Below, piece after piece: positions 2,189 to 2,459 of a DNA stretch of 64,000 bases (positions within the stretch are counted from its first letter, which is position 1; each line of letters starts with the position of its first letter). A program made the translations under genes and the position numbers. Source of the DNA: an uncultured archaeon. GTDB lineage: Archaea > Thermoproteota > Nitrososphaeria_A > Caldarchaeales > Wolframiiraptoraceae. The notes under the pieces were generated by a model. It did not search any database, was not told where the DNA came from, and worked only from the letters and a program-made list of their open reading frames with translations. The stretch lies in NCBI GenBank assembly GCA_938083505.1, contig CALKCF010000004.1, positions 93,630-157,629 on the forward strand, in the 5' to 3' direction.

Positions 2189-2243
2189 ATGCAAAAAATT
2201 CAATAAGCCCTATGTTGTATAAATATACTGGCCGGGGTAAAAG

Positions 2244-2333
2244 GCCGGGGTTGGCGAAAAGCCACCGAAGGCCGAGCAGCTAGGCGGCGGCCTGCAGAGC
2301 CGCTCCACTCGGGTGCAAATCCCGACCCCGGCT
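2244..2333 (+). tRNA. tRNA-Cys(GCA) with a putative 18-nt intron (2252-2269) at position 8/9
   Basis: Acceptor GCCGGGG/CCCCGGC plus U73; anticodon arm GCGGC-CTGCAGA-GCCGC; T arm TCGGG-TGCAAAT-CCCGA; removing 2252-2269 gives a 72-nt cloverleaf; TATAAATA at 2218-2225. Confidence 0.85.
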
Positions 2334-2459
2334 TTATATATAATGAATACGTCGTGCAAATTCTGCGACTCAGTACAACTTTGAACAAACTCTGGTTAAA
2401 TTTAATAAATGACGGTATGGTCCTATGCCTCAAACGTTTAGCTTTTTTGCATACAATTG

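Follow-up and report, generated by a model that had tools for sequence, protein, structure and literature searches.

A tRNA-Cys gene of Candidatus Terraquivivens (Aigarchaeota/Caldarchaeales) is interrupted by a short insert near its 5' end and is preceded by a second copy of its own 5' acceptor strand. The best explanation, to which we give a probability of roughly 0.7, is a functional single-copy tRNA-Cys gene with a BHB intron at position 8/9 and a spare strand in the leader that aids splicing. The evidence came from the comparison of related genomes, from RNA folding and from a second gene of the same design.

Results

An insert between U8 and G9 of a tRNA-Cys gene

The window, which is the whole stretch of 64,000 nucleotides analysed here, corresponds to contig C4:93630-157629 of a 1.15-Mb genome (G000) that is 98.5 % complete and lies in 10 contigs. 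Relatives of the neighbouring genes place the host in Candidatus Terraquivivens. This genus has three named species, T. tengchongensis, T. tikiterensis and T. ruidianensis, and Chinese and New Zealand hot springs are their source. Judged from its sequence, window 2244-2333 on the forward strand is a tRNA-Cys(GCA, U73) gene in which an 18-nt insert (2252-2269) separates U8 from G9, and the parts of the gene are as follows.

2244..2251, forward strand: 5' exon, tRNA positions 1-8, the same as positions 1-8 of the uninterrupted orthologue in G020
2244-2250, forward strand: 5' acceptor strand, read from the sequence
2251, forward strand: U8, read from the sequence
2252..2269, forward strand: 18-nt predicted BHB intron at 8/9; G020 and about 43 further tRNA-Cys genes in the order lack it with the same exact boundaries
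2270, forward strand: G9, read from the sequence
2270..2333, forward strand: 3' exon, tRNA positions 9-73; BLAST homology to other genera begins exactly at 2270
2294-2296, forward strand: anticodon GCA, read from the sequence
2314-2320, forward strand: T loop TGCAAAT, read from the sequence
2326-2332, forward strand: 3' acceptor strand, read from the sequence
2333, forward strand: discriminator U73, read from the sequence
2334..2344, forward strand: T/A-rich trailer, CCA unencoded; a putative terminator

When 2252-2269 were removed in silico, ARAGORN called the joined exons as tRNA-Cys(gca) of 72 nt, and the spliced product had what identifies a tRNA-Cys, namely the GCA anticodon, the U73 discriminator and a cloverleaf with a 7-bp acceptor stem. 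The locus as it stands was missed by ARAGORN, by Rfam at the gathering score and by a search of the whole genome with RF00005 at E<=1, as the preliminary description had expected of standard finders. Weak Rfam matches round the locus (SNORD57, U5, Tymo tRNA-like and others) were all far under the gathering score and were rejected as chance. The locus is flanked by genes for a radical-SAM protein and a glycosyltransferase, and there is no integrase gene beside it.

The D arm of this tRNA contains a G13.A22 mismatch, and the AG in the D loop and the TGC in the T loop that had been pointed out earlier are both there. When 50 tRNA-Cys genes from the order are compared, the bases at position 18 (D loop) and position 55 (T loop) show perfect covariation (A18/G55, G18/U55). 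In this genome tRNA-Cys is the sole tRNA with a TGC T loop (window 2275-2281, 2314-2320), and the near-universal contact between G18 and pseudouridine-55 is replaced in it.

The insert boundaries coincide with the predicted BHB cuts

The locus was compared by BLAST with 35 genomes of the family, and full-length matches were obtained in four congeners. In the other genera homology started at query base 71, which is window base 2270, and tRNA-Cys was uninterrupted in four other genera of the family. The congener G020 also has an uninterrupted tRNA-Cys, which equals exon 1 plus exon 2 of the window save for one variable-loop base. The 18-nt insert is carried by five species (the window's genome, G015, G016, G018 and G019). 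A single boundary pair (2251|2252, 2269|2270) recreates the orthologous sequence, and both boundaries coincide with the cuts predicted for the BHB, after the second base of each 3-nt bulge. The tRNA-Cys with a BHB-type intron at 8/9 that had been proposed from the window alone thereby gained independent backing, as its predicted cuts are the boundaries set by uninterrupted orthologues. The elements of the fold are listed below.

2243-2245 with 2271-2273, forward strand: helix h, paired in 100 % of 7 sequences
2243, forward strand: leader base G-1, first pair of the outer helix h (with 2273), invariant, pair present in 7/7
2246-2249 with 2264-2267, forward strand: central helix H, four positions made of three Watson-Crick pairs and one G.A
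2253-2255 with 2261-2263, forward strand: hairpin h', loop 2256-2260, paired in 100 % of 7 sequences
2250-2252, forward strand: bulge 1, tRNA bases 7-8 and the first intron base
2268-2270, forward strand: bulge 2, the last two intron bases and G9

Two 3-nt bulges thus lie on opposite strands round a four-position helix (one G.A), flanked by h and h', and this is the layout given in the preliminary description (a helix, a central helix of three Watson-Crick pairs plus G.A, two 3-nt bulges). The 5' exon is taken up by the fold, with 2244-2245 in h, 2246-2249 in H and 2250-2251 at the start of bulge 1. That the 5' acceptor strand would have to leave the acceptor stem to form the BHB, as was also claimed, is supported by this pairing.

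Within the genus, intron variation was confined to the hairpin loop, and the exons and intron helices were invariant in five species. In genus g8, which belongs to another family, two species have a tRNA-Cys with the same 8/9 site, a 23-nt intron and the same leader copy. The H helix of g8 consists of four Watson-Crick pairs, and its longer h' shows a compensatory change from C-G to U-A between the two species. The g8 and Terraquivivens introns align at 15/18 positions with one 5-nt indel and may share one origin. As a separate observation, the Terraquivivens tRNA-Cys exons are 89-92 % identical to those of family f2 and 83-86 % identical to those of other genera of their own family; this closeness and the alignable introns of g8 and Terraquivivens give a hint of transfer or ancestral polymorphism of the whole tRNA-Cys gene. 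Relatives of the intron elsewhere in the window's genome were limited to matches with 3-5 mismatches, at chance level, with no sign of intron transposition. On the comparative evidence, a real, spliced BHB intron at 8/9 of tRNA-Cys is very probable.

A copy of the acceptor strand is conserved in the leader

A second copy of the 9-mer is present at window 2230-2238, offset by 13 nt, as had been reported from the window itself. The upstream elements are the following.

2199..2206, forward strand: conserved A/T-rich box, probable TATA element of the tRNA-Cys promoter, near-invariant in five Terraquivivens species; the next 24 nt diverge
2230..2237, forward strand: leader copy of the 5' acceptor strand, G/A at 2230 and an invariant 7-mer at 2231-2237; proposed partner of 2326-2333
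2238..2242, forward strand: linker between the two copies, 3-5 nt and of variable sequence in the species comparison

In the alignment of five species from promoter box to intron, all seven columns of the 7-mer were invariant (also in seven species when g8 is included), and in the spacer upstream of the copy 22/24 columns varied and 2/24 were invariant. The expectation for a chance 7-mer copy within 30 nt is about 6e-4. Five genomes of Chinese and New Zealand origin, each assembled independently, all have the copy, so the duplication is not an assembly artefact. Among the 50 distinct tRNA-Cys genes read in a survey of 76 genomes of the order, the copy was found in 7/7 intron-bearing genes versus 2/43 intronless ones. 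One of these two has it about 70 nt away, and in the other it directly abuts the gene. The latter gene (L091 in G062, family f3) is an intronless tRNA-Cys directly preceded by a second 7-nt acceptor-strand copy, which could be a relic, a pre-adaptation or chance, the strand being nearly palindromic.

The preliminary description had also read the upstream copy as a duplicated 5' exon that could give the same tRNA through a 31-nt intron. This part did not hold, as position 8 would become A or G in 3/5 species and a pseudoknotted fold would be needed. The base 3' of the leader copy is T, A, G, A or T across the five species, that is, T in the window's genome and G016 and A/G in three, and it is also non-U in both g8 species (A, G or C across the non-T cases); the T after the proximal copy is invariant. 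Because the following base is A/G in three of five species, the upstream copy is unlikely to be a second exon, and it is better read as a conserved leader element.

Among the roughly 42 tRNA genes of the window's genome, upstream copies of the acceptor strand were found at tRNA-Cys and tRNA-His only, and the same two genes are the only ones with an intron at the acceptor/D junction. The leader copy thus repeats the 5' acceptor strand base for base, is better conserved than its surroundings and is tied to an intron near the 5' end. The helix between leader and 3' strand is invariant among tRNA-Cys genes and shows no covariation there; between genes, the Cys and His copies each fit their own acceptor, which differs at position 5.

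The leader copy lowers the modelled cost of the splice-competent fold

In the MFE structure of 2228-2336, the upstream copy paired with 2326-2332 and the real 5' strand lay in a local hairpin with the intron. The probability of helix h at 37 C was about 1.0 with the copy and 0 when the copy was deleted or replaced. The cost of the exact BHB conformer above the MFE was calculated for both genes and for the canonical intron of tRNA-Gly(CCC).

tRNA-Cys with leader copy: +7.6 kcal/mol at 37 C, +4.5 kcal/mol at 70 C
tRNA-Cys without leader copy: +17.1 kcal/mol at 37 C, +12.4 kcal/mol at 70 C
tRNA-His with leader copy: +7.0 kcal/mol at 37 C, +5.6 kcal/mol at 70 C
tRNA-His without leader copy: +12.9 kcal/mol at 37 C, +10.8 kcal/mol at 70 C
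tRNA-Gly(CCC), canonical control: +5.7 kcal/mol at 37 C, +3.7 kcal/mol at 70 C

The exact BHB was not the MFE for Cys, His or the canonical control, the nearest-neighbour model favouring a shifted local register, and because this held for the control as well, only relative costs were used. In these models the leader copy brings the cost of the splice-competent fold of the Cys and His precursors down to the level of a canonical substrate.

Ordinary tRNA genes in this genome have an A/T-rich box that ends about 25 nt before the mature +1, and the box of tRNA-Cys ends at a distance of 24 nt from the upstream copy. For tRNA-His the distance from the box end to the upstream copy is 23 nt, except in T. 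tikiterensis, in which 16 nt are inserted, so the transcript need not always begin at the copy. These distances suggested that the tRNA-Cys transcript would start at or before the upstream copy. A TATA-like string at 2219-2226 was rejected as the promoter, being unconserved and too near the tRNA.

tRNA-His is a second gene of the same design

A leader copy together with an intron was also seen, from sequence and relatives, in the gene for tRNA-His(GTG).

C2:162613-162720 of the window's genome (locus L043/L044), reverse strand: tRNA-His(GTG), leader-copy and intron design

Its layout is a promoter box, an exact copy of G-1 and the acceptor strand, a 2-nt linker, the real strand and a 21-nt intron at 9/10. 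The intron is unrelated to that of tRNA-Cys and lies one position further in, and its central helix H includes a G.A. The copy matches the His acceptor, which differs from that of Cys at position 5. As for the register, the mature G9 is constant and the last intron base is G in the window's genome and A in three others. Each species has its own hairpin loop, whereas stem and H partner are conserved. In other genera tRNA-His is uninterrupted and has no copy; when the order was probed with the 3' exon of tRNA-His, hardly any genome outside the family was matched. ARAGORN mis-parses the gene, and the Rfam match to it spans positions 9-63 only.

In G020 the His design is present and the Cys design absent, so the two arose at different times; by this distribution the tRNA-His design is the older. 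In T. tengchongensis (G018, L049) the tRNA-His intron is precisely absent, and the copy is kept with a substitution, the sole mutated copy seen. The helper may here be decaying now that the intron is gone. If the Cys genes of Terraquivivens and g8 share their origin, two clearly independent instances of the design are seen here (Cys and His), and judged from these sequences at most two or three origins were sampled.

The interrupted gene is the sole tRNA-Cys found, in a genome with processing enzymes

No other tRNA-Cys turned up in the 98.5 %-complete assembly, whether with ARAGORN (introns allowed or disallowed), in the RF00005 search at E<=1, in the BLAST comparison or in a scan that looked for T arms and a complementary acceptor. 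That scan returned about 42 tRNA genes and no other GCA/U73 candidate, and the exon probe matched the genome once. Two candidates were rejected. The 'tRNA-Cys' called on C5 by ARAGORN in intron mode is tRNA-Gly(CCC), with A73, a Gly-type acceptor and a clean canonical BHB that gives CCC. The TGCA string at C8:33368-33478 belongs to a tRNA-Val(CAC) gene, which has A73 and two introns.

The genome encodes CysRS (388 bits), RtcB (578 bits) and an RNase P RNA (155 bits). EndA is represented by two paralogues, of the crenarchaeal alpha/beta type. The alpha subunit aligned with chain B of A. pernix EndA at E 2e-50, gapless through the Crenarchaea-specific loop, in which the residues K44/R46 are K/K (both basic); the catalytic Tyr/His/Lys context aligned as well, with the histidine context intact. 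The broad substrate range of EndA is conferred by the Crenarchaea-specific loop and its Lys44 (PMC3241643), and non-canonical introns are cut by the alpha/beta and epsilon types of EndA only (PMC5829648). By sequence, the host thus appears to have the enzymes needed for non-canonical BHB introns, an alpha/beta EndA with the specificity loop and RtcB.

Other tRNA genes of the genome

The tRNA-Gly(CCC) gene (C5:11942-12032, reverse strand) contains a canonical intron of 14 nt; in the spliced form, the anticodon loop has G32, C33 and G38, without the usual U33. The tRNA-Asp gene (C2:145690-145791, reverse strand) is interrupted at 68/69, within its 3' acceptor strand, by a BHB intron of 29 nt. 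About 15 nt after its CCA, the trailer contains a segment that could pair with the whole 5' strand (one G.U), and this segment sits past a six-T run that may terminate transcription. Non-canonical or multiple introns were seen at C8:33368-33478, C6:7403-7491, C2:3724-3813, C2:65961-66089 and C7:67070-67190; in Val(CAC) they lie at about 26/27 and at 37/38, in Arg(GCG) and Arg(TCG) at about 28/29, and Trp(CCA) and Gln(CTG) have several inserts. Most of these multi-intron or non-canonical genes were mislabelled by the intron mode of ARAGORN. Genes for tRNA-Tyr, Val(GAC), Leu(GAG) and a third CAU tRNA were not found in the genome by ARAGORN, Rfam or the T-arm scan; introns may conceal them, or they may fall into gaps of the assembly. 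Since the same tRNA-Lys(TTT) sequence stands at the start of contig C1 (C1:10-107) and at the end of contig C3 (C3:221443-221540), the two contigs probably overlap and could be joined.

Discussion

The genome comparison shows the gene identity, the exact intron boundaries, the BHB geometry, the presence of the enzymes, and the conservation of the copy and its association with the intron. We infer that splicing takes place, where transcription starts, that the copy has a pairing role and in which order the processing steps follow. The BHB fold takes the real 5' strand out of the acceptor stem, which would be the reason for a spare copy in the transcript. In the proposed mechanism, G-1 and tRNA bases 1-2 of the precursor would pair with D-stem bases 10-12 (helix h), bases 3-6 would pair with the last part of the intron (H), and the spare strand 2231-2237 at the start of the transcript would pair with the 3' acceptor strand. 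The alpha/beta EndA would cut after the second base of each bulge, and RtcB would join U8 to G9. Until ligation, the spare strand would tether the 8-nt 5' exon, which is otherwise held by three pairs. After splicing, the real strand would displace the spare strand and RNase P would remove the leader; how the competition of the two strands for the 3' strand would be settled at this stage is conjecture. Sequence conservation and modelled folding together make it reasonably probable that the leader copy acts in this way, as a surrogate strand or as a tether.

Other readings of the locus were weighed against this one. The intron could be real and spliced by EndA unaided, and the upstream copy a functionless footprint of the origin of the insert, for example of slippage between similar 5-mers. 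The same 5-mer does occur in tRNA-Cys at positions -1 to 4 and 9 to 13, the copy outlasts the intron in the tRNA-His of T. tengchongensis and abuts the intronless tRNA-Cys of G062, and the leader helix is without covariation. However, the 7-mer stayed unchanged in five species while 22/24 spacer columns and the linker changed, and tRNA-His shows the arrangement again, with another intron and a copy that fits its own acceptor; moreover, the BHB conformer is 6-10 kcal/mol costlier without the copy, and the sole mutated copy belongs to a gene whose intron is gone. We therefore regard a mere footprint as unlikely.

It is improbable that the upstream copy is the true 5' exon, with a 31-nt intron (2239-2269) that includes the proximal copy and with little or no trimming by RNase P. 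The promoter box is at the usual distance from the upstream copy, and the T after the copy in this genome and in G016 would lead to an identical product; but 3/5 species and both g8 species would then make a tRNA without U8, the proximal copy and its T are invariant, the 3' acceptor strand would be left unpaired or a pseudoknot would be required, and an RNase P RNA is present. A broken pseudogene, or what is left of an integration site, that yields no working tRNA seems a hardly credible reading of the locus. Standard finders do reject it, and in a genome of 10 contigs a second gene could sit in a gap. Against this, no other tRNA-Cys was found at 98.5 % completeness though CysRS is present, and the exons are perfectly kept in the five insert-bearing species. 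An att remnant would be a direct repeat flanking an inserted element, usually with an integrase; here an 8-9 nt repeat recurs at 13-nt spacing, nothing but the 3-5-nt linker lies between the copies, and the neighbouring genes include no integrase. The functional gene with a leader spare strand remains the reading that we prefer.

Non-canonical BHB introns are known from Thermoproteales, other Crenarchaeota and Nanoarchaeota, including an acceptor-stem intron at 3/4 in Thermoproteales (PMC4090602), and the aigarchaeon Caldiarchaeum subterraneum has tRNA introns in the D, V and T arms (PMC3293823). Multiple tRNA introns and their gain and loss among close relatives are well described (PMC4090602, PMC3293823, PMC3218864). 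The tRNA-Cys intron resembles these introns in being short, in having two 3-nt bulges round a four-position helix, in lying outside 37/38, in its host with an alpha/beta EndA and the Crenarchaea-specific loop, and in its presence/absence polymorphism among close relatives. It differs in its position at 8/9 from the positions given in the reviews consulted for this comparison (20/21, 22/23, 25/26, 29/30, 30/31, 45/46, 53/54, 56/57, 59/60 and 3/4). A 2026 preprint on Asgard tRNA introns groups a few acceptor-stem and junction insertions as 'other' and leaves leaders unmentioned, and no publication on a leader copy of the acceptor strand with such introns was found in our full-text literature search.

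As in the split tRNA genes of Nanoarchaeum equitans, Caldivirga maquilingensis and other archaea (PMC3218864, PMC3293823), a flank that is discarded would pair, hold the pieces together and present the BHB to EndA. In split genes, two transcripts are joined in trans through complementary leaders, whereas the tRNA-Cys would come from one transcript, and its extra segment mimics a tRNA strand and would pair with the gene's own 3' acceptor strand. With the circularly permuted tRNA genes of Cyanidioschyzon merolae and Thermofilum pendens (PMC3978253, PMC3218864) it shares a BHB formed from termini and flanks and an odd distance from promoter to tRNA; unlike in permuted genes, the exon order is normal and no circular intermediate is needed. 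The two exons of tRNA-Cys lie side by side in one orientation, with 18 nt between them, which places the gene in neither the split nor the permuted class.

We lean slightly towards a general reading in which archaeal introns in the first ten tRNA positions would be possible only through a spare acceptor strand encoded in the leader, as a splicing helper that acts in cis. If this is true, splicing would be imposed before 5' maturation, the model predicting an obligatory order with splicing before RNase P, and the gain and decay of the helper would track the gain and loss of the intron. The clades sampled here would then offer dated natural experiments on intron turnover, with gain in one clade and a clean loss with incipient helper decay in T. 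tengchongensis. Genes of such a design would be invisible to standard finders, and genomes that carry them would seem to be without tRNA-Cys or tRNA-His. The discarded leader would be the site of a simple, testable helper element, and an essential single-copy tRNA could accommodate an intron even where forming the splice signal and folding the tRNA are mutually exclusive.
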